Assembly: GCF_039595395.1 (NCBI RefSeq)
Contig: NZ_JBCNLP010000001.1
Location: forward strand, 577,823-641,822
DNA from: Novosphingobium sp.
GTDB lineage: Bacteria > Pseudomonadota > Alphaproteobacteria > Sphingomonadales > Sphingomonadaceae
DNA: 64,000 nt
Reading direction: 5' to 3'
The stretch's first letter is position 1. Each line of letters starts with the position of its first letter. The notes beneath the pieces were generated by a model. It did not search any database, was not told where the DNA came from, and saw nothing but the letters and a program-made list of their open reading frames with translations. Both the position numbers and the translations under genes were made by a program. Positions 1,972-52,891 of this stretch are shown piece by piece.

Positions 1972-2214
1972 GAAGAGGAAATGCGAGGGCCATCGCCCTC
2001 GCGCTCCCTTTAATGTCTACGTCGCGCACCGGGTTCGGCCTTGCGCTTAGCTTGCCGCGCCGCAGGCTTTAAACGAGAAAAAGGCGCCGAGGCATTCCTG
2101 CCTGCGGCGCCTTTTCGTGCCCGTGGAAAGGTTGCGCAACCGTTGGATGCCACCAACCTTCGTGTCGGAAGACGTCATGGGAGCGCGAGGGGGTAACCCC
2201 CTCGCACCTTCCCT
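1972..2214 (+). repeat. Family-1 intergenic element, copy 1 (full length, forward)
   Basis: Left hairpin GCGAGGGC-catc-GCCCTCGC at 1983-2002 and right hairpin GCGAGGGGGT-ta-ACCCCCTCGC at 2185-2205. Conserved core motifs are TAATGTCTAC, GGGTTCGGCC, GCCGCGCCGCAGGC and GGCGCCG..CTGCCTGCGGCGCC+TTTT. It fills the gap between the convergent NodT-family gene and ppdK. Confidence 0.9.
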
Positions 2215-2217
2215 TTT

Positions 2218-4890
<2,673 letters not shown>

Positions 4891-5069
4891 GCTGTCCTCT
4901 GCAAACGGTGCGCGCCCAAGGGGCCACAGGTCTGATCGTGCCTTAGGGGGAATGCCCTTAACCCGACAAGTCACGGCTTGTGCAGTTGTGCAGCTGCACA
5001 CAGGGTTTTTGTGCAGTCGCTGCGGTGAGCAGTTGGGAAGGCGGGGTGAGGGGAGTTTTTAGGGGCAGA

Positions 5070-5312
5070 AAAAGAAAGATGCGAGGGTGTTACACCCTCG
5101 CGCTCCCATGAATGTCTACGTTGCGCCACGGGTTCGGCCTTGCGCAAAGTTTGCCGCGCCGCAGGCCTTTAAACGCGAAAAGGCGCCGGGGCATCACTGC
5201 CTGCGGCGCCTTATCTTGTGCTGGTGGAGAGGTTGGGCGTCACGATAGGGAGCCACTGCCGCTGCGTCGGAAGACGTTATGGGAGCGCGAGGGGGTAACC
5301 CCCTCGCACTTA
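5070..5312 (+). repeat. Family-1 intergenic element, copy 2 (full length, forward)
   Basis: Same architecture as copy 1, but the left hairpin allele is GCGAGGGTG-tta-CACCCTCGC. It lies between the dnaA stop (5320-5322) and the ppdK start. Confidence 0.9.
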
Positions 5313-5319
5313 TTCTTCT

Positions 5320-6840
5320 TCAGCTTTCCAGCTGCCTCAACAGCGACCGCACATCCCCATCCATATCGGCGTCCCGCGTGCGCAGATCCTCGATCAGGCG
5401 CACGGCGTGGATCACCGTCGAGTGGTCACGCCCGCCGAACTTGCGCCCGATCTCGGGATAGGAACGCGGCGTCAGCACCTTCGACAGATACATTGCCACC
5501 TGACGCGGCCGCACCACGGCGCGCGCGCGGCGCTTCGACGACATCTCGGTGCGGTCCACGCGGTAGAACTGGCAGACGGTGCGCTGGATCTCGTCGATGG
5601 TGATGCGCTTGCGGTTGGCCGACAGGATGTCCGTCAACTGGTCCTCGGCCAGCGCCAGAGACACGGGCTGGCCGGTCAGCTGGGCATAGGCGATCAGCTT
5701 GTTGAGGCCGCCGACCAGCTCGCGCACATTGCGGTTGATGGTGCGGGCCAGGAACTCGATCACATCGGCAGGAACCGCCGTGGGCGAGGCAAAACGCGCC
5801 AGACGGTGCTCGAGGATCGAGCGGCGCAGCTCGATGTCGGCGGGCTGGATATCGGCCACCAGACCCATCGACAGGCGCGAGAGCAGGCGCTGCTCCACGC
5901 CGTCCAGCGCCTGGGGCGCGCGGTCGGCGGCGAACACCAGACGCTTGCCTTCGCCCAGCAGCGAGTCGATCGTGTAGAGCAATTCCTCCTGCGCCGAGGC
6001 CTTGCCGATGATGAACTGGATATCGTCCACCAGCAGCAGGTCGAAGCCGCGCAGGCGGGCCTTGAACTCGATGGTCTGGTTCGAGCGGAGAGCCTGCACG
6101 AACTCGACCATGAAGCGCTCGGCGCTGCAGTAGAAGATGCGGGCGCGCGGATGGTTGGCCAGGAAGGCGTGGCCGATGGCGTGCATCAGATGGGTCTTGC
6201 CCTGACCCGTCGCGGCCTTGAGGTACAGGGGCGAGAACTGGGGCTGTTCCAGCGCGGCCATGCGCTGGGCGGCATTGGCGGCCAGCACGTTGGAGGTGCC
6301 GGTGACATAGGTCGCGAAGGTCAGCGAGGGGTCGAGGCCGATCGAGGCCATGCCCAGCGTATCGGTGACCACGCTGGCCACCTCGCCCACCGACAGGCTG
6401 GAGGCGCGGGGGGCGGGCGTGTCATTGGCGGGGCGTGCGGCGGTGTCGCGGGTCAGGCGCAGCTCGGGCATGGCGCGGCGGCCCGGATGCACCGAGATGC
6501 GCACATGGCGCACGTCACGCGTGATCTTCCAGGCCAGCGTCAGGCGGTCCGAATAGCGGTCGGCCACCCAGTTGGCGGAAAATTCGGTGGGCAGATACAG
6601 GTCGAGCGTGCCGGTTTCCTTGCAGAAGCCGCCCAGCTGGATCGGACGGATCCACTGGTTGAAGAGCTGCTGTCCCAGATCCTTGCGCAGGCCCTGGCTG
6701 ATATCGGCCCAGTCGGCGGCGAGATCGATCGCCTCCTGATCCTGCGCGCTGTCCGGGGCGGCCTTGCTCTTGCCGGCCGTTTCGGCGCGTCGTCCACCCC
6801 ACACCGTTCCTGTCACGCGTTGATACTCCCGATCCGTCAT
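5320..6840 (-). CDS. dnaA: Chromosomal replication initiator protein DnaA
   Basis: 506 aa. It has the AAA+ Walker A motif (GQGKTHLMHAIG), box VII, and a C-terminal DNA-binding helix (VAMYLSKVLTPRSYPEIGRKFGGRDHSTVIHAV). Confidence 0.97.
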   Translation of the reverse strand: MTDREYQRVTGTVWGGRRAETAGKSKAAPDSAQDQEAIDLAADWADISQGLRKDLGQQLFNQWIRPIQLGGFCKETGTLDLYLPTEFSANWVADRYSDRLTLAWKITRDVRHVRISVHPGRRAMPELRLTRDTAARPANDTPAPRASSLSVGEVASVVTDTLGMASIGLDPSLTFATYVTGTSNVLAANAAQRMAALEQPQFSPLYLKAATGQGKTHLMHAIGHAFLANHPRARIFYCSAERFMVEFVQALRSNQTIEFKARLRGFDLLLVDDIQFIIGKASAQEELLYTIDSLLGEGKRLVFAADRAPQALDGVEQRLLSRLSMGLVADIQPADIELRRSILEHRLARFASPTAVPADVIEFLARTINRNVRELVGGLNKLIAYAQLTGQPVSLALAEDQLTDILSANRKRITIDEIQRTVCQFYRVDRTEMSSKRRARAVVRPRQVAMYLSKVLTPRSYPEIGRKFGGRDHSTVIHAVRLIEDLRTRDADMDGDVRSLLRQLES

Positions 6841-7095
6841 TGCCTGTAAAAATGCCTGCTACAAACCTGACCAGCTACCAACCACGCCGCACATCAGCGC
6901 CCGAAGCGCTGGTTGACGCGGCCACGACACATTAAACCACACATCACACACGGTCGCGGGCCTGCCTGCCCCGTCCATAAGGGACGGGGGAAAAAGCATG
7001 CCTGCGCGATCCGCTTCCCTCACCTGTGATGCCCACGACGCATTCAGGCACAGCTTCTTCGCTGGCCCGAACCACCCACGGCACGGACATCCGGT

Positions 7096-7324
7096 GAGTC
7101 ATTTTTCCATGAAGCCCCGAGCAGGATGTGTCCGGGGCAGAAGGGTTTCTATGGACGACTCTGGGGGCAGAGCAAGGGGGCTCCCTGCAAAAATTTTGAA
7201 ATAAACCACCTTGACAGTGATGCAGCGGGAGAAAACCGTCGAGACGAATAATCACCTGATTATTAACAAGAAAATGCAGATGAATTTCATGAGGTTTTCA
7301 CGAATCGGCGCATTTCCACGATTC
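7096..7324. promoter_or_regulatory. Cluster of four GANTC (CcrM-type methylation) sites in the dnaA upstream region
   Basis: GAGTC at 7096, GACTC at 7157, GAATC at 7302 and GATTC at 7320. Two more lie at 7442 and 7455 in the rpsT 3-prime region. The stretch is AT-richer than its surroundings and sits 256-484 nt upstream of the dnaA ATG. Confidence 0.4.
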
Positions 7325-7360
7325 GTTGCAGTTCGCTGACAATTGGTTTGCGCGGGCACG

Positions 7361-7390
7361 AAAAAACCGGCGGGGGAAACCCCACCGGTT
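7361..7390 (-). terminator. Rho-independent terminator downstream of rpsT
   Basis: The minus strand reads AACCGGTGGGG-tttc-CCCCGCCGGTT followed by TTTTTCG. Confidence 0.8.
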
Positions 7391-7482
7391 AATCCTCGTC
7401 ACAATACTTAAACAATCGCTGCTTTTTCGGTCACCATCGGCGAATCGTTTTAGCGACTCGAGAGCAACCGGCAGCCGATTGA

Positions 7483-7743
7483 TTACAGCGCCGCGACAGC
7501 CTTGGTCAGGCGCGACAGCTTGCGGCTGGCGGTGTTCTTGTGCATCACGCCGCGGGCAACACCACGGGCCAGCTCGGGCTGGGCGGCGTGCAGGGCTTCG
7601 GCGGCGGCGGTCTTGTCACCACCGGCGATGGCGCTCTCGACCTTCTTCACGAAGGTGCGGATGCGCGACACGCGGGCACCATTGATCTCTGCGCGCTTCT
7701 CGTTGCGACGGAGACGCTTGCGGGCTTGCGGCGTATTGGCCAT
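7483..7743 (-). CDS. rpsT: 30S ribosomal protein S20
   Basis: [34 protein letters not shown]... is a typical S20. The ATG is at 7743, and the ORF-track start at 7755 is 4 codons too long. The rpsT-dnaA order matches other alphaproteobacteria. Confidence 0.93.
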
Positions 7744-7892
7744 GTCTATCCTCAAACTGGCCGAAAGCGGCCGAAAATGCTGCTGAAACCTGATACAGGC
7801 AGACCCGCGCCACAGGCACAGGTCACCTTGAAGGCAGCGCCCTTAGCGAGGGTGTTGCGAATCGTCAAGCACTGAGCGCCATAACAATGGGC

Positions 7893-8729
7893 TTAACGCT
7901 GGCACACCGGGCACCAGAAGGTGGAGCGTCCACCCTGCGTAACCCGCGCAATCGTGCCCTTGCAGCCCGGCGCGAGGCAGGCCTGACCCTCCCGCCCATA
8001 GACGCGCCAGTTGGCCGCGAAATAGCCCAGCTCGCCATTGGGCTGGGCATAGTCGCGGATCGTCGAGCCGCCTGCCAGAATGGATTCGCTCAGCACATCG
8101 CGGATCGCGGGCACCAGCCTTGTCAGCTCCGCCTTCTTGATCGAGCCCCCGCTGCGCAGCGGGCTGATATGCGCGCGATGCAGCGCCTCGCAGACGTAGA
8201 TGTTGCCCAGCCCCGCCACGATCCCCTGATCGAGCAGCAGCAGCTTCACCGGCCCGATACGCCCCTTGAAGGCTGCCGCCAGATGGGCAACGCTGAGCCC
8301 ATCGCCCAAAGGCTCAGGCCCCAGGGCGGCAAAGGCAGGCCACAGATCCAGCGCCGTGCTGGCCACCAGATCCACCGAGCCAAACCGCCGCGCATCGTTG
8401 AGCGCCAGCATGGCGGCGGGCAGGGGGCCTTCGGCCTGCGTGTGCAGCACCAGATGGTCGTGCTTTTCCAGCGCATCGGGCTCGATCCGCCAGCGGCCCG
8501 ACATGCCCAGATGAAACACCATCGCCACATCGCGGTCCGTATGCAGCACGCCATATTTCGCGCGCCTTGTGAGATCGATGATCCGCGCCCCGGTCAGCGT
8601 CTGCACCAGTTCGGGCGGGAAGGGGCGGCGCAGGCCCTCGCGGCGGACCTCGATGCGCTCGATCCGGCGGTTGTGAAGGTAACCCGTCAGGCCGCGGATC
8701 GTGGTTTCGACTTCTGGAAGTTCTGGCAT
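7893..8729 (-). CDS. mutM: Formamidopyrimidine-DNA glycosylase
   Basis: The N-terminus is MPELPEVETT and the C-terminal zinc finger is CPVCQR. 278 aa. Confidence 0.95.
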   Translation of the reverse strand: MPELPEVETTIRGLTGYLHNRRIERIEVRREGLRRPFPPELVQTLTGARIIDLTRRAKYGVLHTDRDVAMVFHLGMSGRWRIEPDALEKHDHLVLHTQAEGPLPAAMLALNDARRFGSVDLVASTALDLWPAFAALGPEPLGDGLSVAHLAAAFKGRIGPVKLLLLDQGIVAGLGNIYVCEALHRAHISPLRSGGSIKKAELTRLVPAIRDVLSESILAGGSTIRDYAQPNGELGYFAANWRVYGREGQACLAPGCKGTIARVTQGGRSTFWCPVCQR

Positions 8730-8750
8730 TCAGGTGATGTAAGGGGGATG

Positions 8751-9004
8751 AGAAGGAAAGAGAAGATGCGAGGGCCATCGCCCTCGCGCTCCCTTTAATG
8801 TCTACGGCGCGCCACGGGTTCGGCCTTGCGCCCAGTTTGCCGCGCCGCAGGCAGGAAAACGGAGCCGATCGCCGAACTTTCCTGCCTGCGGCGCCTTATG
8901 TGGTGCAGGTGGAGAGTTTGAGCATAACGACGCGGCGCCACTAACCTTGCGTCGGAAGACGTTCCGGGAGCGCGAGGGGGTAACCCCCTCGCATCTTCCT
9001 TTTA
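8751..9004 (+). repeat. Family-1 intergenic element, copy 3 (full length, forward)
   Basis: Both terminal hairpins are present. The central module forms a single long hairpin, GCGCCGCAGGCAGGAAA...TTTCCTGCCTGCGGCGC. It lies between divergent mutM and ubiE. Confidence 0.9.
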
Positions 9005-9069
9005 TCTTTCGTCCATCATGCCTCATCCGCCCCTTTGCCTAACCCATCAAATTCCCTAAAGCGCACGCC

Positions 9070-9822
9070 ATGACCGACAGCACGCAAGACCAGCCCCAGA
9101 CCGCTTCCTTCGGCTATGAGGAGGTGCCCATTGACGAGAAGGTGGCCCGCGTGGGCCAGGTCTTCTCGAGCGTGGCGAAGAAGTACGACATCATGAACGA
9201 TGCGATGTCGGCGGGTCTGCACCGGGTTTGGAAGGATCGTTTCGTGCGCGCGGTAAAGCCGCAGCCCCATGAGCAGATCCTCGATATGGCGGGCGGCACG
9301 GGCGACATTGCCTTCCGCATGGCGGCGCGCGGCGCCAGCATTACGGTGTCCGACATCAATCAGGACATGCTCGATGTCGGGCTGGAGCGCGCGGTGGAGC
9401 GGGGCATCGACGGCCTCGTCTGGAGCCGCCAGAACGCCGAGGAACTGAGCTTCCCCAACCGCCATTTCGACGCCTACACGATCGCTTTCGGTATCCGCAA
9501 CGTCACGCGGATCGACAAGGCGCTGGCCGAGGCGCATCGCGTGCTGCGCTACGGCGGCCGCTTCTTCTGCCTTGAATTCTCGACCACCGAATGGCCGGGC
9601 TTCAAGGAGGTGTATGACGCCTATTCGCACAAGCTGGTGCCGCAGATCGGGCAGATGATCGCGGGCGATGCCGAGAGCTATCGCTATCTGATCGAATCGA
9701 TCCGCCGCTTCCCGCCCATGCCCGAGTTCGAGAAGATGATCCGCGATGCGGGCTTCACCCAGACCAAGGTCGAGCCGATTCTGGGTGGTCTGGTGGCGAT
9801 CCATTCGGGCTGGAAGGCCTGA
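9070..9822 (+). CDS. ubiE: Ubiquinone/menaquinone biosynthesis C-methyltransferase UbiE
   Basis: Carries the VFSSVAKKYDIMNDAMSAGLHRVWK motif and the SAM-binding motif LDMAGGTGDIA. Confidence 0.93.
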   Translation: MTDSTQDQPQTASFGYEEVPIDEKVARVGQVFSSVAKKYDIMNDAMSAGLHRVWKDRFVRAVKPQPHEQILDMAGGTGDIAFRMAARGASITVSDINQDMLDVGLERAVERGIDGLVWSRQNAEELSFPNRHFDAYTIAFGIRNVTRIDKALAEAHRVLRYGGRFFCLEFSTTEWPGFKEVYDAYSHKLVPQIGQMIAGDAESYRYLIESIRRFPPMPEFEKMIRDAGFTQTKVEPILGGLVAIHSGWKA

Positions 9823-9824
9823 AC

Positions 9825-11419: not shown

Positions 11420-12541
11420 ATGGGGGACCGCTTTGCCGCCTGGCCGCGCCTGCGCGCGCTGGCGGCGCTGATTGCGCTGGCGATGATGCTGGCGGCCAGC
11501 GCCTTCGTGCCCCTCACCGTGGGCCGGGGCGAAGTGGCCAAGCCCGCGCAAATCTCGCTGACCGGAAACGCCGGCAAACAGGCCGAGCGACCCCGCGATG
11601 ATGACCTGACCCTCTACGACCACGCCGTCACCCGCATCCGCCACGGCGAGAACTATTACGACTTCATCGCGCAGGAGCATCGCAAGGCCGATTACCCCCT
11701 GCGCCCCGGCCTCGCCGTCCGCCTGCCCACGCTGGCCTATCTCGACGCCGCCATGGGCGTGGACGAGGCCAAACCCGCCCCCATCGCCATGGGTGCCGCT
11801 GTGGTGCTGATGCTGGCCGTGATCTGGGCCTGGTGGCGCCGTCTGGGCGATGAGGCCTGCAGCGAAAGCCAGCGCCTTTTCGGCACCGCGCTGATCTTCC
11901 TTGGCGCCTCGCTGGGGCTGAATCGCTATTATTTCGTGCTTCACGAACTCTGGGCCGGGATGCTGATCGCCCTGTCTCTCGGCCTGCACCGGCCTTCGCG
12001 GGGCCGCTGGCTTGGCGCATGGCTGGCCGCCGCGCTGGCGCTGGCCATCCGCGAGCATACCTTGCCCTATGTGCTGCTGATGGGCGCCATGGCCCTGTGG
12101 CGCGGCCATCGGCGAGAGGCCGGGGCATGGGCGCTGCTGGTGGCGCTGTTCGCGCTCGCCATGGCGGTGCATCTGCATCTGGTTGCCCTGCACACGCTGC
12201 CCACCGACCCCACCGGGCCAAGCTGGTTTGCCATGCGCGGGCTGGGGGGCTGGCTGTCGAATGTGGCGCTCTCCTCCAACCTGCGCTTCCTGCCGCACTG
12301 GATCGCCGGGCCCGCGATCATCGCCATGATTCTGGGCTGGGCCGGATGGCGCAGCGAGGCGGGAGCCACAGCGACGCTGCTGTTCCTCGGTTATGGGCTG
12401 CTGTTCATGATCGCCGGGCGGGATGATAATTTCTACTGGGGGGCGATGATCGCGCCCGCCATGTTTGTCGGGCTGGCTTTTGTGCCGATGGCTCTGGCAG
12501 GGGTGTGGAAGGCGGTTTGGACGGGGCGGGAAGGCATTTAA
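11420..12541 (+). CDS. Polytopic integral membrane protein of unknown function (possibly GT-C-like)
   Basis: There are about 9-10 hydrophobic segments. An early periplasmic loop carries acidic residues (RPRDDDLTLYDHAV...GENYYD). The start is uncertain, either 11348 or 11420. Confidence 0.55.
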   Translation: MGDRFAAWPRLRALAALIALAMMLAASAFVPLTVGRGEVAKPAQISLTGNAGKQAERPRDDDLTLYDHAVTRIRHGENYYDFIAQEHRKADYPLRPGLAVRLPTLAYLDAAMGVDEAKPAPIAMGAAVVLMLAVIWAWWRRLGDEACSESQRLFGTALIFLGASLGLNRYYFVLHELWAGMLIALSLGLHRPSRGRWLGAWLAAALALAIREHTLPYVLLMGAMALWRGHRREAGAWALLVALFALAMAVHLHLVALHTLPTDPTGPSWFAMRGLGGWLSNVALSSNLRFLPHWIAGPAIIAMILGWAGWRSEAGATATLLFLGYGLLFMIAGRDDNFYWGAMIAPAMFVGLAFVPMALAGVWKAVWTGREGI

Positions 12542-12772
12542 AAGAAGATGCGAGGGGGTTACCCCCTCGCGCTCCCATGACGTCTTCCGACGCAAGGGCA
12601 GGGGCGCCCGGTCGTTGCGCCCGGACTATCCACCTGCGCAACCTAAGGCGCCGCAGGCATCAAATCCCTGCCTGCGGCGCGGCAAACTGGGCGCAAGGCC
12701 GAACCCGATGCGCGCCGTAGACATTAAAGGGGGCGCGAGGGCGATGGCCCTCGCATCTTCTCTTCTTCCCCT
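12542..12772 (-). repeat. Family-1 intergenic element, copy 4 (full length, reverse orientation)
   Basis: It is the reverse complement of the copy-1 architecture. Its central module is reduced to one hairpin, GCGCCGCAGGCA-tcaaatccc-TGCCTGCGGCGC. It starts at the base after the upstream TAA (12539-12541). Confidence 0.9.
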
Positions 12773-12800
12773 TCAACCCTCCCCCCGCTATCACGCGCCA

Positions 12801-27424: not shown

Positions 27425-27650
27425 GGGTAAAGTGTTAAAAGCAGGGGGTGTTACACCCCCTGCACCCCCGGAACGTCTTCCGGCGAGAGGGGAATGAATG
27501 GGGCGTCGTCGCGTTCCGAACGCCCTGATGTGCAATATGTGTCGTGCCTCCGGCGGTGAGATCGGGCGCAGCGGCGCCGCACAATCTGCCTTCGCATCGG
27601 GAGACGTATCGGGAGCGCGAGGGGATAATCCCCTCGCACTGACCCTTTTT
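27425..27650. repeat. Family-1-related variant element, copy 5, inside the ahpC-ahpF spacer
   Basis: Both ends are of the right-end type (GACGT-containing arm plus hairpin). The hairpins are GCAGGGGGTG-tta-CACCCCCTGC (27441-27463) and GCGAGGGGAT-a-ATCCCCTCGC (27617-27637). The interior has diverged from the other copies. Confidence 0.7.
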
Positions 27651-28379: not shown

Positions 28380-28624
28380 AGGAAGGAGAATGCGAGGGCC
28401 ATCGCCCTCGCGCTCCCTTTAATGTCCACGTTGCGCGTAACCTATCGGTTCGGCACGGATTCATGGCGCCGCAGGCTTTCAAATCGCCAGCACAGCGTGC
28501 CGTTCAGGGCATACCTGCCTACGGCGCAGGTGGAGAGATGAGGCGTTTCGCTTCGGTGCCACTACCGTCTCGCCGGAAGACGTTCCGGGAGCGCGAGGGG
28601 GTAACCCCCTCGCATCTTTCTTTT
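28380..28624 (+). repeat. Family-1 intergenic element, copy 6 (full length, forward)
   Basis: Both terminal hairpins and the conserved GGTGGAGAG and GGAAGACGT motifs are present. It ends 1-2 nt before the aroC stop (28626-28628). Confidence 0.9.
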
Positions 28625-34226: not shown

Positions 34227-34376
34227 GGTTTCGGTTTGGGGATTATGCCTCCGGCGGGCAAAGGGCCATCGCCCTTTGCAATCCCTTTTTTCTGCCTTTG
34301 CGCTGCGGGTTCAGCGTTGGGTGTTGGGCGCGATGCTGATGTTATAAGCCGCTTCGCGGGAGGCGAAAGGGCTGGA

Positions 34377-34675: not shown

Positions 34676-34805
34676 GTCTTTGCCGCGCCGCAGGCAATTC
34701 TAACATAGGCGGCACAGCCAATTCAGCGCAACGCCGAACCCGAGGCGCACGGTAGACATTCATGGGAGCGCGAGGGTGTAACACCCTCGCACCTTCCCTT
34801 CCTCC
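34676..34805 (-). repeat. Family-1 intergenic element, copy 7 (truncated, about half length, reverse orientation)
   Basis: It retains a degenerate central segment, GCCGAACCC, GTAGACATT and one terminal hairpin (GCGAGGGTG-taa-CACCCTCGC). The other end is missing. Confidence 0.75.
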
Positions 34806-37662: not shown

Positions 37663-37925
37663 GAAGGTTTGAAGAGGTAAGTGCGAGGGCCGTCGCCCTC
37701 GCGCTCCCTTTAATGTCTGCGACAGTGCTTTGGGTTCGGCCTTGCGCCCAGCTTGCAGCGCCGCAGGCTTGAAAACGATAGAAGGCGCCGGGGCTTCCTG
37801 CCTGCGGCGCCTTTTCGTTGCGCAGGTGGAGAGCCGAGGCACGACGAAGCGGTGCCACTGCCAGTTCGTCGGAAGACGTCATGGGAGCGCGAGGGGGTAA
37901 CCCCCTCGCACCTTCCTTTCCCTCC
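37663..37925 (+). repeat. Family-1 intergenic element, copy 8 (full length, forward)
   Basis: It begins immediately after the upstream TAA (37660-37662). Both hairpins are present, and the central hairpin is followed by TTTTCGTT. Confidence 0.9.
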
Positions 37926-41789: not shown

Positions 41790-42088
41790 AGGGGTTTGAA
41801 GGGGGAAAGTGCGAGGGTGTTACACCCTCGCGCTCCCTTTAATGTCCGCGTTGCGCTTCGGGTTCGGCCATAGGTCTAAGGTCGCTGCGCCGCGGGCTTT
41901 AAACGATAGAGGGCGCCGGGGCTTCCTGCCTGCGGCGCCTTTTCCTTGCGCGGTGGAGAGTTCACGCACCACGACCGGGCGCCACTGCCCATGCGTCGGA
42001 AGACGTCATGGGAGCGCGAGGGCCCGGAGCATGTCTCTTGAGACATGCGACCAACAAAGACTCCCCCCTCGCATCTTCCTTTTCCCTT
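41790..42088 (+). repeat. Family-1 intergenic element, copy 9 (full length, forward) with a 43-nt insertion in the right terminal hairpin
   Basis: The right hairpin arms GCGAGGG (42016-42022) and CCCTCGC (42066-42072) are separated by 43 nt instead of 7. The insert holds its own palindrome, GCATGTCT-cttg-AGACATGC. Confidence 0.88.
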
Positions 42089-42130: not shown

Positions 42131-42163
42131 GGCGAGGGCTCTTCTGCAATGCCAGGAAATCAA

Positions 42164-43711: not shown

Positions 43712-43908
43712 GTGGCTCGGTCCTCTTTCTGATGTCGGCGCATGCTGCCCCGGCCGGGGCGCAAGGCGCAAGAGCAATTCAACAGGTTAACTGGCGGATG
43801 GGCGTCAGGTTTCGGCCAAATCTCACCTTTTTGCCCTGAATGAAGTTTGAATGGTTCATCTTTGCGGGGGTTCTGGCGGGTTTGGTCTAAGCTGTTTGGG
43901 TAAATGAC

Positions 43909-46103: not shown

Positions 46104-46249
46104 CCTGTGCCATGGCGGAAAGGCTGCCGGAGCATTTTGAGAAGGGGCATAAAATGCCGCTTCGGCTCGAAAATGCGACCCACAAAGAGAAAGAGCCTTT
46201 TCGCTTCTGGCGAAAAGGCTCTAGGGCCTAGGCAATCCCCTATGTTCCG

Positions 46250-47257
46250 ATGCCTGAAAGACTTCTGCCCATGACCTCGCCCGACATGCTCAAGCAGCAT
46301 TTGCCTGAAACTCTGGCGCAGCGGGTGCAATCCGCGCGGCTGGTCGAGGGCGTGGCGACGCTGGTGCTGGACGGCGCCGGGCTGGACCAGCCCGGTCGCG
46401 AGCAGGCCGAACACGCCATCCGCACGGCGCTGGCAGGGGTGGAAGGCGTGAGCGAAGTGCGCGTCGGCATCATGGCCGACCGCCCCACCGAGGCGCCCAA
46501 ACCCAAGGGGCCGATCATCATTTCCGTCGGCGCTGGCAAGGGTGGCGTCGGCAAATCGACGCTCTCGGCCAATCTGGCGGTGGCGCTGGCGCGGCAGGGC
46601 TTGAAGGTCGGGCTGGTCGATGCCGATATCCACGGCCCCAGCCAGCCGCGCCTGTTGGGCACCGAAGGCATCAAGCCCGAGGCCGCCGACAGCAAGATGT
46701 TTCCGATCCCTACGGCGTTCGGTATCCGCGCCCTGTCGATGGGCAATCTGATCGAGCCGGGCAAGGCCATCGCCTGGCGCGGATCGATGGCGGCGGGCGC
46801 GCTGGGCCAGATGGTCGACGCGCATTGGGGTGATACCCAGGTGCTGATCATCGATCTGCCGCCGGGCACCGGCGATGTGCAGCTCACCATGGTGCAGAAG
46901 CACAAGCCGGCGGGCGCGATCATCGTCTCCACGCCTCAGGATCTGGCGCTGATGGATGCGGCGCGGGCGATTCAGCTTTTTGACACGGTGGGCGTGCCGG
47001 TGATCGGTCTGGTCGAGAATATGGCCGGTTATATCTGCCCCCATTGCGGCGAGGAATCCGACCCCTTCGGCCATGGCGGCGCGGAGACTGCCGCGCGGGA
47101 GATGGGCCTGCCTTTCCTGGGCCGCGTGCCGCTCGATCTGTCGATCCGCGTGGACAGCGATGCGGGCAGGCCGCCTGCCGCCGGTGACACGCTGCAGGGC
47201 AAGGCCTTTGCCGCGATTGCCGCCAAGCTGGCCGCCTGGCTCAAGGCGCACGCCTGA
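46250..47257 (+). CDS. apbC: Iron-sulfur cluster carrier ATPase (Mrp/NBP35/ApbC family)
   Basis: It has the deviant Walker A GAGKGGVGKST and the CPHCG motif. The start is 46250 or 46271. Confidence 0.9.
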   Translation: MPERLLPMTSPDMLKQHLPETLAQRVQSARLVEGVATLVLDGAGLDQPGREQAEHAIRTALAGVEGVSEVRVGIMADRPTEAPKPKGPIIISVGAGKGGVGKSTLSANLAVALARQGLKVGLVDADIHGPSQPRLLGTEGIKPEAADSKMFPIPTAFGIRALSMGNLIEPGKAIAWRGSMAAGALGQMVDAHWGDTQVLIIDLPPGTGDVQLTMVQKHKPAGAIIVSTPQDLALMDAARAIQLFDTVGVPVIGLVENMAGYICPHCGEESDPFGHGGAETAAREMGLPFLGRVPLDLSIRVDSDAGRPPAAGDTLQGKAFAAIAAKLAAWLKAHA

Positions 47258-47259
47258 CC

Positions 47260-49536
47260 ATGGAGCTGTCGCGCCGCCAACTGCTGGTGGGCGCGGCCCT
47301 TGGCGGCGGGCTGGTGGTGGCCTGGGGGCTGCGCAAGCGTCCTTGGCCCCTGCCTCTGCCGCCGGGCGAGGGCGAGGTGGCCTTCGATGCCTGGATCAGG
47401 GTGGGGCGCGATGGCGTGGTCACCGTCAGCGTGCCGCAACTGGAGATGGGGCAGGGGATCAGCACGCAACTGGCGCAGATCGCCGCGCTGGAGCTGGAGG
47501 CGGACTGGCGGCAGATGGGCGTGGTCTTCGCGCCTGCGTCCGAGATTTTCGCCAATGCTCCGCTGGCGGCGCGCTGGGCGGAACTGTGGCTGCCGATGGC
47601 GCGGGACAATGGCGTTCCGTCTGACAACTGGTTGGCCCGCCATTGGGCCGAGGCGCATCGCTTTACCGCCACCGCTGATGGACAGTCGCTGGCGGCTTAC
47701 GAGGCGCCCTTGCGCCATGCCGCTGCCGGGGCGCGGGCGCTGCTGGTGAAAGCTGCGGCGAAGCGCTGGGATGTAAGGCCGGAGGATTGCACCGTGTCCG
47801 GCGGTCTGGTGCACCATGGCCCGCAGAGCCTGACATTTGGCGCTTTGGCGCAGGAAGCTTCCAAGCTAACCCCGCCTGATCCTCTGCCGCTTGGCCCTCT
47901 GCCCGCCGAAAACCCCGCGCGTCTGCCATCGGGCAGCACGCCGCCTTTCCCCCGGCTCGACCTGCCCGCCAAACTCGATGGCGGGTGGATGTTCGCGGGG
48001 GATGTGCGCCTGCCCGATATGGTCTTTGCCGCGATCCGCCATGCCCCCGTTGGAGAGGCTGCGCATCTGGCCGGTCACGATGCCAGGGCCGCGAAAGGCA
48101 TCGGCGGCTTCCTCAAGCTGGTCGAAGGGCCCGACTGGCTGGCCGCCGTCGCCACCAACAGCTGGGCGGCGGAGCAGGCGCTGGCCGCCGTGGCGCCGCG
48201 CTTTTCCGTCCATCGCCCGATCAGCGCGGAAAAGATCGATGGCGCGCTGGATGCGGCACTGAAAGCGGCGATCAAACAGGGCGGGCAGACCATCGCCAAA
48301 CAGGGCGATCCCGAGGCGCTGCTGGGCAGCAAGCCGCCCTACAGCCAGCGCTATGACGCCGCTGCTGCCGTGGCCGCGCCGCTGGAAACCGCCAGTGCGG
48401 TGGCCCGCCTGCGCGATGGGCGCTGCGAGATCTGGGTGGCGTCGCAAGCGCCCGAACAGACCCGCCGCGCGGTGGCCGGGGCGCTCGATATCAGCGTGGA
48501 GCATGTGGTGCTCTATCCGCTGGCGGCGGGCGGCAGTTTCGATGCCCGGCTCGAATGCCCCCATGCCGTGGAGGCCGCGCTGATCGCGCGCGAGACCGGC
48601 AAGCCCGTGCTGCTGACCTACACCCGCTGGCAGGAGGCCGTCACCGCCATCCACCGCCCGCCCCTGGCCGCGCAGATCGAGGCGCGGGTCGATCAGACCG
48701 GCACGATCGCGGCATGGCGGCTGCGTGTGGCGATGCCCTCTGCCGCGCGGGAGTTTGGCGCCCGCCTGCTGCAAGGCACCAGCCGCGCCGAGGCGATGGC
48801 GCATCACCAGAACGCTCATGTCGATCCGCTGGCGATGGAGGGCTTTGTCCCGCCCTACAGCTTCGCGCTTGCCATCGAGCATGCGCCCGTTGCCGTCGGC
48901 CTGCCCACCGGGCGGCTGCGCGGCAATGGCCACGCGCTGGGCGCCTTTATCACCGAGAGCTTTGTCGATGAGATCGCCGCCGCTCAGGGCCGCGAGCCGC
49001 TGTCCTACCGCATGGCTATGCTGGAGGGCGATCCCCGGCTGGCGGCCTGTCTGCAGCGCGTGTCGGCGCTGGCCAACTGGAACGGCGGCCATGATGCCAG
49101 CGGGCAGGGCATCGCCTGCCATCGCATAGGGTCCGTTTCCGGGGGCGGCTGCATCGCCGCCGTGGTGACGGCCCGGCGCGGCGATGAGGGCGTGGCGGTG
49201 GACCGCATTGTCGCCGTGGCGGACATTGGCCGCATCGTGAATGTCGATATCGCCCGGCAGCAGATCGAGGGCGGGCTGGTCTATGGCATCGGTCTGGCTT
49301 TGGGCTCGGCCTCGGTGTGGAATGGGGGCTTGCCCGCTGGCGCGCGGCTGGCGGCGCTCAATCTGCCCTTGCTCGTCAATTGCCCCGAGGTGGAGGTTGA
49401 CCTGATCGCCTCCACCGCCGATCCCGAGGATCCCGGCGAGGTGGGCGTGGCTGTGGCCGCCCCGGCCATCGCCAATGCGCTGTTTTCGGCGACGGGCTTG
49501 CGCCTGCGTCGCCTGCCGCTTGGCAGTGAGGAATGA
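47260..49536 (+). CDS. Molybdopterin-binding subunit of a xanthine dehydrogenase/aldehyde oxidase-family enzyme (IorB-like), Tat signal
   Basis: MELSRRQLLVGAALGGG is a Tat-like leader. The protein resembles the isoquinoline 1-oxidoreductase beta-subunit family along its length. Confidence 0.75.
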   Translation: MELSRRQLLVGAALGGGLVVAWGLRKRPWPLPLPPGEGEVAFDAWIRVGRDGVVTVSVPQLEMGQGISTQLAQIAALELEADWRQMGVVFAPASEIFANAPLAARWAELWLPMARDNGVPSDNWLARHWAEAHRFTATADGQSLAAYEAPLRHAAAGARALLVKAAAKRWDVRPEDCTVSGGLVHHGPQSLTFGALAQEASKLTPPDPLPLGPLPAENPARLPSGSTPPFPRLDLPAKLDGGWMFAGDVRLPDMVFAAIRHAPVGEAAHLAGHDARAAKGIGGFLKLVEGPDWLAAVATNSWAAEQALAAVAPRFSVHRPISAEKIDGALDAALKAAIKQGGQTIAKQGDPEALLGSKPPYSQRYDAAAAVAAPLETASAVARLRDGRCEIWVASQAPEQTRRAVAGALDISVEHVVLYPLAAGGSFDARLECPHAVEAALIARETGKPVLLTYTRWQEAVTAIHRPPLAAQIEARVDQTGTIAAWRLRVAMPSAAREFGARLLQGTSRAEAMAHHQNAHVDPLAMEGFVPPYSFALAIEHAPVAVGLPTGRLRGNGHALGAFITESFVDEIAAAQGREPLSYRMAMLEGDPRLAACLQRVSALANWNGGHDASGQGIACHRIGSVSGGGCIAAVVTARRGDEGVAVDRIVAVADIGRIVNVDIARQQIEGGLVYGIGLALGSASVWNGGLPAGARLAALNLPLLVNCPEVEVDLIASTADPEDPGEVGVAVAAPAIANALFSATGLRLRRLPLGSEE

Positions 49537-49540
49537 GGAT

Positions 49541-50569
49541 ATGACTGTGAGCCAGACCGCTTTGCCCCCCTCCCATCCCGCCGTGACCGTGGGCAAGGTG
49601 GGCGTGCTGCTGGTCAATCTGGGCACGCCTCAGGCCGCGACGCCTGCCGCCGTGCGGACCTATCTGGCGCAATTCCTCTCCGACCCGCGCGTGGTGGAGA
49701 TCCCGCGCGCCATCTGGCTGCCGATCCTGCATGGCATCATCCTGCGCACGCGGCCCGCGAAATCGGCCCATGCCTATGCGCAGGTGTGGACCGAGGAGGG
49801 ATCGCCTTTGGCCGCCATCACCAGGGCTCAGGCGGTGGCGCTTCAGGCGCGGCTGGGCGAGGGCGTGACGGTGCGTTGGGGCATGCGCTATGGCCAGCCC
49901 GCCATTGCCGGGGAGATCGAGGCGCTGAAAAGTCAGGGCTGCGACCGCATCCTGATCTGCCCGCTCTATCCGCAATATTCGGGCGCCACCACCGCCAGCG
50001 TGATGGATGCCGTGGGGGCGGCTCTGGCCGCGATGCGCTGGCAGCCCGCGATCCGCACCCTGCCGCCCTATCACGACGACCCGGCCCATATCGCGGCGCT
50101 GACCAGCGATGTGACGCGCCAGTTGCAGGCGCTGCCCTTCGTGCCCGAGGTGCTGCTGCTCTCCTTCCACGGCATGCCCGAGCGCACCCTGCATCTGGGT
50201 GACCCCTATCACTGCCAATGCCGCAAGACCGCGCGCCTGCTGGGCGAGGCGCTGGCCCCGCTGTTCCCCGTGCTGCGTGTGGAAACCGCCTTCCAGAGCC
50301 GCTTTGGCCGCGCCAAATGGCTGGATCCCTCCACCGAAGCCGTGCTGGAGGCCGAGGCGAAGAAGGGCACGCGCAAGCTGGCCATCGTGGCGCCGGGCTT
50401 CTCCGCCGATTGCGTCGAGACGCTGGAGGAACTGGCGATCCGTGGGCGCGAGGTTTTCGTCGAGGCCGGCGGTCAGGATTTCTCGGTGCTCTCCTGCCTC
50501 AATGCTGGCGAGGAGGGCATGGCGATGATCGAAACGCTGGTGCGGCGCGAGCTGTCTGGCTGGGCCTAA
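49541..50569 (+). CDS. hemH: Ferrochelatase
   Basis: The ATG at 49541 is preceded by GAGGA. VGVLLVNLGTP...YLAQFLSDPRVVEIPR and LLSFHGMPERTL are typical HemH motifs. Confidence 0.93.
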   Translation: MTVSQTALPPSHPAVTVGKVGVLLVNLGTPQAATPAAVRTYLAQFLSDPRVVEIPRAIWLPILHGIILRTRPAKSAHAYAQVWTEEGSPLAAITRAQAVALQARLGEGVTVRWGMRYGQPAIAGEIEALKSQGCDRILICPLYPQYSGATTASVMDAVGAALAAMRWQPAIRTLPPYHDDPAHIAALTSDVTRQLQALPFVPEVLLLSFHGMPERTLHLGDPYHCQCRKTARLLGEALAPLFPVLRVETAFQSRFGRAKWLDPSTEAVLEAEAKKGTRKLAIVAPGFSADCVETLEELAIRGREVFVEAGGQDFSVLSCLNAGEEGMAMIETLVRRELSGWA

Positions 50570-51126
50570 GGCTTGGGCCTAGGCGCCACCTTGTAGCCGG
50601 CATCGGGCGAGACCCAGAGCAGGTGATCGTCCGGGTGGTTCACCGGCTGCCCGGCGATGGTGGCATGGCGGGTGAAGCTGCGGGGATTGCCGCTGCCATC
50701 CGGGGTGCGGGTGGAGCACAATTCCCTGCCGATCAGCCCCTCGCGGGCCATCCCTTCCTGAATGCGCGGCAGCAACCCCGCGCTTTGCTCGGGCGGAAGC
50801 GGCTCGCCGCCGAAACGCAGCTTGGCCTGCTGCACCATCTCCACCGAGACCGTGCCGCACACCTGATTGCCCTTCAGCAGCGCCACGCCGGAAAAGCTGA
50901 GTGTCATCTTCAGATCGGGGCGCAGCAGCACTTCGGTGTCATCGGTGAAGCTGCCATCGGGGCGCGGGGTGAAATGGGCCAGTGCGCGGCAGGTTTTCGT
51001 CGCCTCATCGGGCTCGGCGCATTCGATCAGCCCTTGCGCGACAAGGGCCAGTGGATCGGCGCTGGGGGAGGGCGCGGCGGCATCCGCCTGGGCGGCAAGC
51101 AGCAGGAGCAGGCTGGCAATCGGCAT
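50566..51126 (-). CDS. Secreted hypothetical protein
   Basis: The signal peptide is MPIASLLLLLAAQADA. I recognise no family. Confidence 0.5.
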   Translation of the reverse strand: MPIASLLLLLAAQADAAAPSPSADPLALVAQGLIECAEPDEATKTCRALAHFTPRPDGSFTDDTEVLLRPDLKMTLSFSGVALLKGNQVCGTVSVEMVQQAKLRFGGEPLPPEQSAGLLPRIQEGMAREGLIGRELCSTRTPDGSGNPRSFTRHATIAGQPVNHPDDHLLWVSPDAGYKVAPRPKP

Positions 51127-51161
51127 GGCGTATCTCCCTTACGTCAGCTTCATGGAGGCGA

Positions 51162-51338
51162 TCAGAAATCCCAGGCGATGCCCTTGCGCGTGAAATCGCC
51201 ATAGCGCGTGGGGGACAGGCCCTCGGGGTCGTCCTCCGCCACCGGCGCGGCGGGGGCGGGCGCCGGATCGTTCGACCAATGCGCGGGCTTGGCGAAAGCG
51301 GCGGGGCGCTGAGTCGAGCGTTTGATCATGTCGGCCAT
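51162..51338 (-). CDS. DUF1674 (SDHAF4-like) small protein
   Basis: 58 aa ending ...PTRYGDFTRKGIAWDF, the characteristic DUF1674 C-terminus. The ATG is at 51338. Confidence 0.75.
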   Translation of the reverse strand: MADMIKRSTQRPAAFAKPAHWSNDPAPAPAAPVAEDDPEGLSPTRYGDFTRKGIAWDF

Positions 51339-51403
51339 AGGCCCCCAAATGCACCCGCAGCGCGGCGATTTCAATATGGCCAAAGATAGAGTAGGGGGCC
51401 ACG

Positions 51404-52645
51404 ATGACAGATCAGGACACAAAAGGCCTTCCCGCCCGCCGCGCCGCGCTGCGCATGATGGACGCCGTGCTGCGCCGGGGCGAAACGCTGGACAATGCCG
51501 CTCACGCCGCCTGCCAGGGCATCAAGGCCCGCGAGGACCGCGCTCTGGCCCGCGCTCTGGCGGGCGAGGCGCTGCGCTGGCTGGTCGATCTGGATGCGCT
51601 GATCGATTCGGCAACGCATCAGATTTTGCCGGAAGACGCCAAGCCCCGCGCCGTGCTGCGCCTGATGCTGGCGGGCTGGCTGCGGCTGGGCACGCCGCCC
51701 CATGCCGTGGTGGCGACCGGGCTGGACCTGCTGCAGGGCGGCCCGCGCCGTCTGGCGCATGGCGTGTTCTCGACTCTGGTGAAGCGCGGGGCGACCCTGC
51801 CCGAAACGCCCAGCCTGCCCGAGGCCGTCGCCGCGCGCTGGGGCGAGCGGGCTCTGCCCGTGGCGCAGGGGCTGGCCGTGCCTCCGCCGCTGGACCTGAC
51901 TTTGCGAGAACCCGCCGAGACCGCGCTCTGGGCCGGGAAGCTGGGCGGCACCAGCCTGATGCCCGGCCATCTGCGCCTGTCGCGCGGCAGTGCTGTGGAG
52001 ACTCTGGAAGGCTTCAACGAGGGCGCATGGTGGGTGCAGGATCTGGCCGCCGCCATTCCCGCGCGCCTGATCGGAGCCGGAACGGGCCGCGCTCTGGACC
52101 TTTGCGCAGCGCCCGGTGGCAAGACCATGCAACTGGCCGCGCTGGGCTGGGATGTGACGGCGCTGGATCAGTCGGCCCGCCGTCTTGAACTGGTACGCGA
52201 GAACCTCACCCGCACGAGCCTGAAGGCCGAGACCATCGCCGCCGATGCCCTGAAATGGGAGCCGGAAGGCCTGTTCGATGCGATCCTGATCGACGCGCCC
52301 TGCACCGCCACAGGCACCGCGCGTCGCCATCCCGATGTGCTGCACCGTATCGGCGCGCGCCAGATCGCCGAGATGGCCGAAATCCAGCAGGCCCTGATCG
52401 CGCGGGCTGCGGGCTGGCTGAAGCCGGGCGGGCGGCTGGTTTACGCCGTATGCTCGCTGGAGCGTGAAGAGGGCGAGAGTCAGGCGGCGCAGGTCGGGGG
52501 TCTGGCGGCCGATCCGGTTTTGGCCTCGGAACTGCCCGAGGGTGTGGCGCCGACCGCCGAGGGCTGGGTGCGGACCGATCCGGGCATGCTGGCCGAGCAG
52601 GGCGGGCTGGATGGGTTCTTTGTCGCCCGGTGGCGGAAGGGGTAA
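51404..52645 (+). CDS. rsmB: 16S rRNA (cytosine-C5)-methyltransferase, RsmB/Sun family
   Basis: It has a NusB-like N-terminus, the SAM motif DLCAAPGGKT, and the catalytic motifs DAPCTATG and YAVCSL. Confidence 0.88.
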   Translation: MTDQDTKGLPARRAALRMMDAVLRRGETLDNAAHAACQGIKAREDRALARALAGEALRWLVDLDALIDSATHQILPEDAKPRAVLRLMLAGWLRLGTPPHAVVATGLDLLQGGPRRLAHGVFSTLVKRGATLPETPSLPEAVAARWGERALPVAQGLAVPPPLDLTLREPAETALWAGKLGGTSLMPGHLRLSRGSAVETLEGFNEGAWWVQDLAAAIPARLIGAGTGRALDLCAAPGGKTMQLAALGWDVTALDQSARRLELVRENLTRTSLKAETIAADALKWEPEGLFDAILIDAPCTATGTARRHPDVLHRIGARQIAEMAEIQQALIARAAGWLKPGGRLVYAVCSLEREEGESQAAQVGGLAADPVLASELPEGVAPTAEGWVRTDPGMLAEQGGLDGFFVARWRKG

Positions 52646-52891
52646 GAAGGAAGATGCGAGGGGGTTACCCCCTCGCGCTCACGGAACGTCTTCCGACGAA
52701 GCGGCAGTGGTTCCGAAGCCGTGCGCTCAACCTCTCCACCTGCACAACAGAAAGGCGCCGCAGGCAGTAAGCCCCGACGCCTTTCTCGTTTTTAAAGCCT
52801 GCGGCGCGGCGACCTTGCTCTGAGGCCGAACCCGAAGCGCTACGTAGACATTAAAGGGAGCGCGAGGGTGTAACACCCTCGCATTTTCCCC
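52646..52891 (-). repeat. Family-1 intergenic element, copy 10 (full length, reverse orientation)
   Basis: It occupies exactly the space between the rsmB stop (52643-52645) and the msrA stop (52892-52894). Confidence 0.9.

Follow-up and report, generated by a model that had tools for sequence, protein, structure and literature searches.

A clade-specific, REPIN-like dispersed repeat with hairpin ends in the dnaA region of the Novosphingobium chromosome

The chromosomal region around dnaA of a Novosphingobium sp. (RefSeq assembly GCF_039595395.1, contig NZ_JBCNLP010000001.1, positions 577,823 to 641,822; a stretch of 64,000 nt, all of which was analysed and is hereafter called the window) carries ten copies of an intergenic repeat with hairpin ends. 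We have found that an expansion in the ancestor of the Novosphingobium rosa group brought this family to hundreds of copies and that, since then, the copies have stayed at fixed positions, where their loops and arms turn over fast and their hairpins and central stem are kept. With a confidence somewhat above even, we describe the element as a clade-specific, non-autonomous and non-coding dispersed repeat of the type of repetitive extragenic palindromes (REPs), REP doublets (REPINs) and bacterial interspersed mosaic elements (BIMEs), which would act as a stacked bidirectional terminator. The best reading is that of an oversized REPIN/BIME-like repeat, now largely immobile. As far as we could find, the family has not been described before: it has no Rfam match, and in the literature searched, queries on repeats of Novosphingobium and sphingomonads and on the hairpin sequence found nothing relevant. 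Within the class of REPs, BIMEs and miniature inverted-repeat transposable elements (MITEs) it is unusual for its large conserved core and for its alphaproteobacterial host.

The ten copies had been proposed in a sequence-only reading of the same DNA. All were recovered, at the same positions or a few bases off, by blastn of the copy at 5070-5312 against the window and by nhmmer with a profile built from the eight full copies; these eight gave E-values of 1e-58 to 1e-75, and the remaining two are a half copy and a diverged variant. Each copy lies between called genes and both orientations are represented, as had been noted.

The motif order given by that reading proved correct in alignments. 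Exact GCGAGGG-N4-7-CCCTCGC hairpins occur within the window only at element ends. From the outside inwards, the end module comprises a purine-rich tail, a 20-21-nt hairpin GCGAGGG-loop-CCCTCGC and the motif GCTCCC, which on the opposite strand is GGGAGC plus palindrome. The element is an inverted doublet of this REP-like module around a core of ~190 bp, within which an 11-12-bp GC stem is preceded by an A-rich tract and followed by a T-rich one. The purine- and pyrimidine-rich stretches, formerly taken for flanks, are part of the element (~11 nt strongly and ~19 nt weakly biased), and an outer GGTTTNAAG box was found in 72 of 192 ends versus 7 of 192 shuffled ends. Both the inverted repeat and the unit are therefore longer than first thought: terminal inverted repeats are present, consisting of the hairpin, GCTCCC, an inner motif of ~12 nt and the outer purine run with its GGTTTNAAG box, at a length nearer 45-65 nt than 35 nt, and the element measures ~250-290 bp rather than 240 bp (filled and empty coaBC sites differ by ~251 nt). 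The whole unit, represented by the copy at 37672-37919, folds at -143 kcal/mol with z = -7.6 on the + strand and z = -5.0 on the - strand, the two strands folding about equally; its central stem accounts for -29 kcal/mol and is followed by TTTTCGTT. Several window copies have an inner GGCGCCG...CGGCGCC hairpin, with the A-rich tract before the central stem. Two other interpretations of the ends were discarded. A small peptide starting at an ATG or GTG before the hairpin, with the purine run as a tract resembling a Shine-Dalgarno sequence, is contradicted by the frame shift between 20- and 21-nt hairpins, and no common stop codon is kept. Insertion into the loops of pre-existing terminators (AAGGGG...CCCCTT around the copy at 1972) is explained better by the outer box of the inverted repeat.

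The sequence-only reading would have been refuted by a lack of copies outside the window, but hundreds of copies were found beyond it. In a scan of one genome per species with the pattern GGGAGCGCGAGGG-N5-6-CCCTCGC (at least 120 stretches), the full-length profile matches were, among the matches listed, solely from N. rosa NBRC 15208, and the weaker or partial ones from other Novosphingobium and a Sphingomonadales metagenome-assembled genome (MAG). Syntenic loci of N. rosa, of GCA_017163935.1 and of several metagenome contigs were retrieved by exact AhpC and ribosomal protein S20. A metagenome scan with the right-end pattern yielded at least 120 stretches, mostly of one JGI sample; these 0.99 Mb contain at least 185 copies (117 full length and 68 half copies) and belong to an organism that is syntenic with the window and 87-94% identical to it over ~50 kb. 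There is a copy every 5-6 kb in the window, every 4 kb in GCA_017163935.1 and every 5.4 kb in the metagenome relative, where the loci were selected for containing a copy. The family thus numbers at least hundreds of copies per genome. If the density of the window holds genome-wide, it makes up a few percent of a 4-Mb genome. The family would define where many transcription units end; it also accounts for the breaks of short-read assemblies at gene ends in these bacteria and fragments metagenome assemblies at most such ends. Logan contigs carrying dnaA (L001-L003, L136-L140) break exactly inside the terminal hairpins, at window positions 5288 and 8780.

A distant blastn search of PLSDB plasmids gave no match to the element. 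Carriage by phages was considered and rejected: the sole 'viral' contig with true copies (L159) is a chromosomal cluster resembling a gene transfer agent (GTA), and the other viral matches belong to a different conserved phage region with the hairpin core alone in common. The L159 cluster is RcGTA-like (large terminase, portal, major capsid, DUF2460 and BR0599-like genes), derives from a Novosphingobium-like genome and has two element copies between its genes, at 2141-2371 and 4342-4609.

Comparison with empty orthologous sites in relatives had been suggested as a check, and such sites exist. The gap between fpg and ubiE is 54 nt long and empty in N. flavum (L145/L146) and 121 nt long, with no hairpin, in strain TH158 (L147); the gap before coaBC measures 7 nt in N. 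flavum, and in TH158 the two genes overlap. No hairpin was detected in the 20 kb compared from N. flavum and TH158, or in 60 kb of the two genomes together. The window copies are therefore insertions that these two organisms do without. Closer relatives have the sites filled: occupancy is ten of ten in the metagenome strain, including the half copy and the variant between ahpC and ahpF, four of four in L135 (88-91% identical), six of six in GCA_017163935.1, which has one extra copy besides, and five of five in N. rosa. No presence/absence difference was seen among close relatives at comparable sites. That the copy is retained at each orthologous site speaks against simple decay, though copy-to-copy repair could look alike.

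The interval between dnaA and the gene for pyruvate phosphate dikinase (PPDK; window 5001-5320) varies in gene content: it has no extra genes in the window, one (Amidohydro_2) in L135 (12447-14091) and three in GCA_017163935.1 (L142 12413-16787), namely Amidohydro_2, a gene for a phosphonate-binding protein and a LysR gene. The variable block is bordered by element copies in the same orientation, as is expected if copies mediate deletion or insertion by recombination. Same-orientation copies around variable gene blocks are a substrate for deletions and gene-content change. Another observation concerns a Novosphingobium MAG with a dnaA of 84.5% identity, in which the stop codon of that gene is followed by a solo end module (L062 900-975) made up of the purine run, GCGAGGGCCACGGCCCTCGC and GCTCCC. 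In the window this position is taken by a full copy, and the downstream neighbour differs.

At these fixed positions the sequence of the element changes fast. Orthologous copies are 73-80% identical between the window and L135, compared with 81-89% at third codon positions of most neighbour genes and 81-87% in other intergenic DNA; relative to the metagenome strain their mean identity is 78% (65-93%), with flanks at 87-94%. Paralogous copies within the window share a mean of 71%. In the metagenome comparison the ends are better kept than the interiors (83% vs 74%), and entire hairpin variants and arms were found swapped between orthologous copies. Base pairing is preserved throughout: all 77 hairpins in Novosphingobium loci stay complementary, by way of at least seven stem variants (GG/CC, TG/CA, GA/TC and others). 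Taking 92 distinct copies together, pairing holds in 98.6% of the cells that make up the two end hairpins and the central stem, and the covariation score was reached by none of 500 shuffles; the top covarying pair (columns 19-56) is CG in 47, UA in 38 and GC in 4. The central 11-bp stem is nearly invariant and paired in 98.5% of cells, with a loop of 9 to ~60 nt. Neither a mutual-information scan nor RNAalifold (18 and 94 copies) revealed base-pair covariation beyond the two terminal hairpins; the other pairs of high mutual information are adjacent positions, i.e. module haplotypes. The constraint is on structure, not on sequence. This combination of complete positional conservation and rapid internal change makes the family suited to asking whether repeats persist by usefulness or by copy-to-copy repair.

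Two small palindromic inserts recur in the terminal-hairpin loops of unrelated copies. One, of 42 nt (CCCGGAGCATnnCTCTTGAGnnATGCGACCAACAAnGACTCC), is found at window 42023-42064, at L134 8761-8802 and L208 ~4435-4697, and in L237 and L192, with a compensatory change from GT/AC to TC/GA; the other, of 33 nt (CCCCAGCTTGTCGCGTGCGACAAGCGCACGCTT), is found at L124 2292-2324 and in L238. Either nested mini-elements targeting the loop or the spread of hairpin variants by conversion may account for them.

The placement of the copies deserves attention. Among 74 copies, convergent gaps hold 43%, as against 17% of all gene pairs at the same loci, and divergent gaps 4%, as against a background of 15%. 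In gaps between tandem genes there is no preference of orientation (18 same, 21 opposite), which is expected of a symmetric device. In the eight full window copies the central stem folds at -25 to -39 kcal/mol; TTTTCG, TTTTCC or TTTCTG follows it directly in four of them, and the others have weaker tails. In the several copies with the A-rich tract before it and the inner GGCGCCG...CGGCGCC hairpin, this stem reads as a terminator on both strands. Outward of each end hairpin stands ATCTTCCTTT, and the end hairpins pass a simple terminator scan. When a strong terminator-like site was defined by at least eight pairs and at least seven G-C pairs in a consensus scan, seven of the nine such sites in the first 20 kb were outward-facing hairpins of element ends; other scans flagged further element ends at 28593, 37889, 28411 and 52676. 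Each copy would present two or three stacked strong hairpins with T-rich tails facing both ways, and would serve as a bidirectional transcription stop or insulator at gene ends, above all between convergent genes, where it is tolerated or useful. To judge from these sequence features, the copies probably stop transcription in both directions and probably stabilise the 3' ends of mRNAs. The same placement also fits an alternative to the insulator, namely that copies inserted at sites at which a structure of this kind is least harmful.

Both fpg and coaBC have their start codon 38-46 nt from a left-end hairpin and lack a Shine-Dalgarno sequence (window 8729-8768 and 12755-12800), and a GCTATCAC or CTTACATC box stands 6-8 nt upstream of these starts. 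Since the box resembles the -10 consensus of alphaproteobacteria, GCTANAWC, leaderless mRNAs may be transcribed from an outward promoter in the outer left end.

As to what spread the element, its earlier description as a MITE/REP-like non-autonomous element holds in part: a non-autonomous, non-coding, REP/MITE-like dispersed repeat is supported, and a MITE in the strict sense is not, no target-site duplication and no parent insertion sequence (IS) having been found. REPs of Pseudomonas and Xanthomonas read, for example, TGTGGGAGCGGGCgTGCCCGCGAA and GTAGGAGCGCGCTCGCGCGCGA (PMC2817692, Table 1), and the end module, TGGGAGCG plus a GC palindrome, has the same build. In that paper the definition of a REP includes a GT(A/G)G head, conserved at the palindrome's 5' foot. 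Over-representation of a short extragenic GC-rich palindrome (~20-40 nt and imperfect in REPs) is seen in the 20-21-nt hairpin, which within the window occurs in intergenic elements only, and solo hairpins or end modules exist in other Novosphingobium loci (L062, L023, L063, L065). Two inverted REPs joined in one unit capable of forming a hairpin, as in REPINs, are likewise present, around a conserved spacer of ~190 bp that is atypical. Published accounts picture REPINs as having no duplications, a single or absent transposase gene and long vertical persistence, and the element, with vertical persistence and no target-site duplication, matches that picture. Copying would have been carried out by a single-copy HUH tyrosine transposase resembling RAYT, the REP-associated tyrosine transposase, acting on the hairpins in single-stranded DNA, a route that would leave no target-site duplication.

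A candidate of this kind was found outside Novosphingobium. A Sandaracinaceae MAG (JACKEC010000016.1; L024 480-1819, also L017, L031 and L091) contains an identical core with a GTGG head, and three 101-bp tandem units with GTGGGGAGCGCGAGGGGCTTGCCCCTCGC lie directly upstream of a RayT-like Y1 open reading frame (ORF) of 310 aa. This ORF, in which SHFHAV (HUH-like) and YAIVNP motifs are present, matches the NCBIfam model REP_Tyr_transpos (NF047646) with an E-value of 5.8e-10 and has 253 homologs, mostly myxobacterial and named RayT by JGI. A repeat of the 3' end of the gene upstream (GAVDYVPVACRD*) follows the ORF, as would arise from duplication of the target by the cassette.

Several findings weigh against a REPIN-type repeat that serves as a terminator. 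No RAYT-like or other Y1 gene was detected by tblastn, phmmer and hmmsearch in ~1.3 Mb of Novosphingobium DNA including the 64-kb window; the queries were RayT of E. coli and a profile built from 105 members of the RayT-like family of myxobacteria, the Sandaracinaceae locus was their sole match, and a single-copy RAYT gene could easily lie outside the ~1.3 Mb sampled. The myxobacterial ORF itself falls below the NCBIfam cut-off (39 vs 80 bits) and has no Pfam match, and the link to RAYT, which draws on resemblance and on this one locus, is a lead, not proof. RAYTs are reported to be rare in Alphaproteobacteria (PMC5581495). The canonical GT(A/G)G head is absent in Novosphingobium, where ATGG, CCGG or AAGG precedes GAGCG; the heads read CATGGGAGC, CCGGGAGC and AAAGGGAGC, sharing GGGAGCG with the Pseudomonas REPs and missing the GT. 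The conserved core of 190 bp is far longer than described REPIN spacers, and no insertion polymorphism that would point to current mobility was seen between close strains. With respect to termination, the tails after the end hairpins are mixtures of C and T (ATCTTCCTTT) and not clean U tracts, and one copy within the ahpCF operon and three in divergent gaps are placed where a strong terminator would do harm.

The main rival is a classical MITE, at a probability well below that of the REPIN-type repeat: a deletion derivative of an IS whose inverted repeats of 45-65 nt were bound in trans by a DDE transposase, the latter since lost or present as a single copy, with a duplication that was very short or has been erased by age. 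TA is the target duplication of the IS630 family, for example. The long terminal inverted repeats with the outer GGTTTNAAG box, the size of 250-290 bp without coding capacity, the two orientations with truncated copies, and bursts restricted to a clade with empty orthologous sites all suit such an origin; a T-A step often borders the purine run and is compatible with a 2-bp TA duplication, but this boundary follows trivially from a purine run preceded by T. The flanks speak otherwise. In 96 independent copies the longest shared flank word averaged 4.68 nt versus 4.57 nt (sd 0.98) in mismatched pairs, which is no signal of a target-site duplication; none was apparent with 15 copies either, and a 2-bp duplication is still compatible with these data because the exact element ends are blurred. 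As had been stated for the window, there is no transposase, and none was found in the loci of relatives or in ~1 Mb of element-rich metagenome DNA; no recurrent ORF occurs near the hairpins in 120 genome loci, apart from translations of tandem repeats themselves, and no multi-copy ORF in the ~1 Mb of metagenome loci, so that a related autonomous IS is missing from all of this material. In other taxa the same hairpin exists in solo end modules and in tandem arrays, forms that typify REPs and not MITE ends, and swapping of whole hairpin variants between orthologues is unexpected for an inverted repeat that is read as duplex DNA. Two specific candidates failed. Pairs of hairpins 2-3 kb apart (L023, L037), examined as a possible autonomous copy, enclose ParA/HEPN, aminotransferase and epimerase genes, not transposases; for an IS5-like end GGAAGGTGCGA with a TTA/TA duplication there is no duplication signal, and the boundary of T and two purines is trivial given the purine run. 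In L023, a Novosphingobium MAG, the inverted solo end modules at 5254-5279 and 7439-7464 flank a two-gene cassette without transposase, which encodes a ParA-like AAA_31 ATPase and a HEPN RiboL-PSP protein.

Two further explanations start from function. A regulatory cassette built by the host, a bidirectional terminator or insulator spread and homogenised by recombination or gene conversion and kept by selection at gene ends, appears unlikely. Complete retention at orthologous sites despite rapid internal change, the wholesale swapping of arms and hairpin variants among copies, the strong excess of copies where gene ends converge, terminator-like hairpins facing both directions and gene-content differences bordered by same-orientation copies would all agree with it. 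Recombination alone, however, fails to explain how copies arrived at hundreds of unrelated sites, a 7-nt gap among them; a symmetric inverted repeat whose ends are conserved is what marks a transposable unit, and related hairpin modules exist in distant phyla. It is very improbable that the copies are small RNA genes or RNA elements acting in cis, in which the conserved stems would be RNA structure and the central hairpin and T tract the terminator of the RNA, a form of the structured RNA family offered earlier as the alternative. The fold is highly stable on both strands (z = -7.6 and -5.0), the central stem is terminator-like on the + strand and the end hairpins exhibit compensatory changes, but such changes are limited to the two terminal hairpins, the interiors diverge faster than the flanking DNA, and both strands fold about equally, as inverted repeats in DNA would. 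There is likewise no promoter-like site within or before the copies and no strand preference relative to the flanking genes. Nor does Rfam support it: at gathering thresholds the window gave two tRNAs only, a permissive search (E up to 10) with one copy gave at best 20 bits against a cut-off of 38, and the Rhodobacteraceae, gammaproteobacterial and myxobacterial loci with the same hairpin gave one tRNA only.

The REPIN-type reading also frames the comparison with known systems. With the REPINs and RAYT of Pseudomonas fluorescens and E. coli the family shares two inverted GC-rich palindromes, hundreds of extragenic copies without target duplication, a transposase gene that is single or absent and not that of a multi-copy IS, sites that stay fixed over long vertical descent, many singlets in the form of half copies, compensatory changes that preserve the hairpins and the end motif of TGGGAGCG plus palindrome (PMC2817692; PMC5581495). 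It differs by a spacer that is a conserved modular core of ~190 bp with a stem-loop of its own, where the REPIN spacer is short, by the unconserved GT(A/G)G head and the lack of a RAYT gene in the ~1.3 Mb sampled, and by its host, an alphaproteobacterium, a class in which RAYTs are reported rare. The BIMEs of enterobacteria and the RIMEs of rhizobia resemble it in their mosaic modules with alternative versions, palindromic units in alternating orientation, and positions at gene 3' ends and between operon genes; roles in termination and mRNA stability have been proposed for BIMEs. No sequence relationship to either was detected, and the Novosphingobium element has the fixed order left-core-right instead of variable tandem clusters; it is also much longer than RIME1 and RIME2 (~108 bp). 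The hairpin-forming MITEs Correia/NEMIS of Neisseria, ERIC of enterobacteria and RUP of Streptococcus are co-transcribed with their neighbours and can carry terminators or promoters. They too are non-coding units of 100-300 bp with terminal inverted repeats, high copy number and intergenic location. These families have defined target duplications (TA for Correia and RUP) and known or suspected DDE parents; the Novosphingobium element, unlike them, has no duplication and no parent IS, and each of its ends is a perfect local hairpin. PATEs, non-autonomous derivatives of the IS200/IS605 family mobilised in trans by a Y1 HUH transposase, have subterminal hairpins and lack the duplication of the inverted-repeat type, as does our element. 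The end hairpins of IS200/IS605, however, point the same way on one strand instead of forming inverted repeats, whereas here GCTCCC/GGGAGC and 20 further bases are truly inverted, with no TnpA or TnpB gene nearby. The family extends REP/REPIN-like repeats, best known from gammaproteobacteria, into Sphingomonadales, with a unit that is unusually large and modular.

The hairpin core has a wider distribution than the element. Rhodobacteraceae, gammaproteobacterial and myxobacterial lineages and a phage group have the same core of ~27 nt, attached to inner sequences that differ, which suggests a wider family that may outweigh the Novosphingobium family itself. We consider it rather doubtful that the Novosphingobium element is the visible part of an undescribed alphaproteobacterial REPIN-RAYT-type system, in which the doublet captured a bidirectional terminator and was domesticated as a genome-wide insulator, not junk. 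The hairpin superfamily of such a system would, as tentatively, span Sphingomonadales, Rhodobacteraceae, gammaproteobacterial and myxobacterial lineages and siphovirus-like phages; an equally speculative part of it is that the element was kept at essentially every insertion site over the life of the clade, amounting to ~4% of the sampled DNA.

In more than 30 genera of Rhodobacteraceae (~50 loci within L004-L121) a conserved unit of ~55 nt, CTTCTTCTTGGnnAAAATAYYCCG-GGGAGC-GCGAGGGGCTGGCCCCTCGC, stands mostly directly after stop codons (e.g., L078 ~4194-4219, L047 1218-1243 and L064 6728-6753). It has the hairpin core of the Novosphingobium element and a different inner sequence, and L020, L054, L055 and L115 each have a facing pair of such units, which makes an inverted doublet of ~150-200 bp. 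MAGs of Azotimanducaceae/Pseudomonadales have the core of GGGAGC plus hairpin in head-to-tail arrays with a period of 45 bp (L036 ~2150-2490, at least nine units; L008 4893-4962; L009, L075, L079). About 24 related IMG/VR contigs (L148-L180) share ...GCGAAGCGCGACC-GGGAGC-GCGAGGGCAGGCGCCCTCGC-ATAGAATGAGC..GAAGGAG (e.g., L154 4916-4941 and L179 371-396), often ~372 nt from the contig end; by PHROGs these contigs are siphovirus-like (tape-measure protein, exonuclease), with the same hairpin core in a phage regulatory context.

Within the window the neighbours of the copies are ordinary housekeeping genes: dnaA, rpsT, fpg, ubiE, ubiB, coaBC, ahpCF, aroC, degP, rsmB, msrA and the genes for a catalase and PBP1A. 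The full copy at 1972-2215 (+ strand; hairpins 1983-2002 and 2185-2205; nhmmer E-value 2.7e-70) takes up the entire convergent gap between the gene for an outer-membrane efflux protein (405-1961, +) and the PPDK gene (2218-5001, -), both products assigned by Pfam, and its site is also occupied in L134, L135, L142 and L195. The next, at 5070-5316 (+; hairpins 5081-5101 and 5287-5307; 1.3e-74), lies upstream of the PPDK gene and immediately 3' of the stop codon of dnaA (5320-6840, -), with orthologous copies in L135, L142, L143 and L218. The divergent fpg/ubiE gap holds the copy at 8757-9002 (+; hairpins 8768-8787 and 8972-8992; 1.4e-75). Between a gene for a hypothetical protein of 397 aa (stop codon 12539-12541) and coaBC lies the copy at 12540-12765 (-; hairpins 12550-12570 and 12735-12754; 3.3e-66), in which the central stem has the short-loop form.

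The diverged variant at 27425-27650 (+; nhmmer 27431-27649, E-value 6e-14 over the right half only) is located within the ahpC-ahpF operon. Both of its ends are of the right-end type, with a right hairpin at 27617-27637 and a left hairpin GCAGGGGGTGTTACACCCCCTGC, the left end being an inverted copy of that type; the site is conserved in N. rosa, GCA_017163935.1 and several metagenome contigs. The full copy at 28382-28623 (+; hairpins 28392-28411 and 28593-28613; 1.5e-58) separates the stop codon of aroC from the conserved promoter region of ahpC, and comparison with its orthologues across L124-L133 reveals compensatory hairpin changes and a replaced interior. The reference copy at 37672-37919 (+; hairpins 37683-37702 and 37889-37909; 2.8e-74), between the tandem NMO and DLH genes, has its central stem-loop at 37758-37810 and its T tract at 37812-37815. 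In the copy at 41800-42082 (+; 5.7e-66), between the convergent PBP1A and DegP genes, the 42-nt palindromic insert (42023-42064) lies within the loop of the right hairpin. The last full copy, at 52646-52893 (-; hairpins 52656-52676 and 52862-52882; 4.7e-75), occupies the whole convergent rsmB/msrA gap, these genes being named from Pfam, with both stop codons 10 nt from the terminal hairpins, and has an orthologue in L184.

The half copy at 34709-34801 (-; hairpin 34770-34790; E-value 6.5e-19, model positions 2-93) consists of the left end, the hairpin and the left arm alone and adjoins the stop codon of the catalase gene; the same half copy was found in the metagenome relative L279. Its gap contains a second, different hairpin at 34258-34279, GCAAAGGGCCATCGCCCTTTGC followed by a T-rich tail. 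This hairpin also adjoins short elements made of a left end plus terminator in N. sp. SG751A and N. sediminicola (L072 ~1700-1745; L107), and it may represent another small repeat family.

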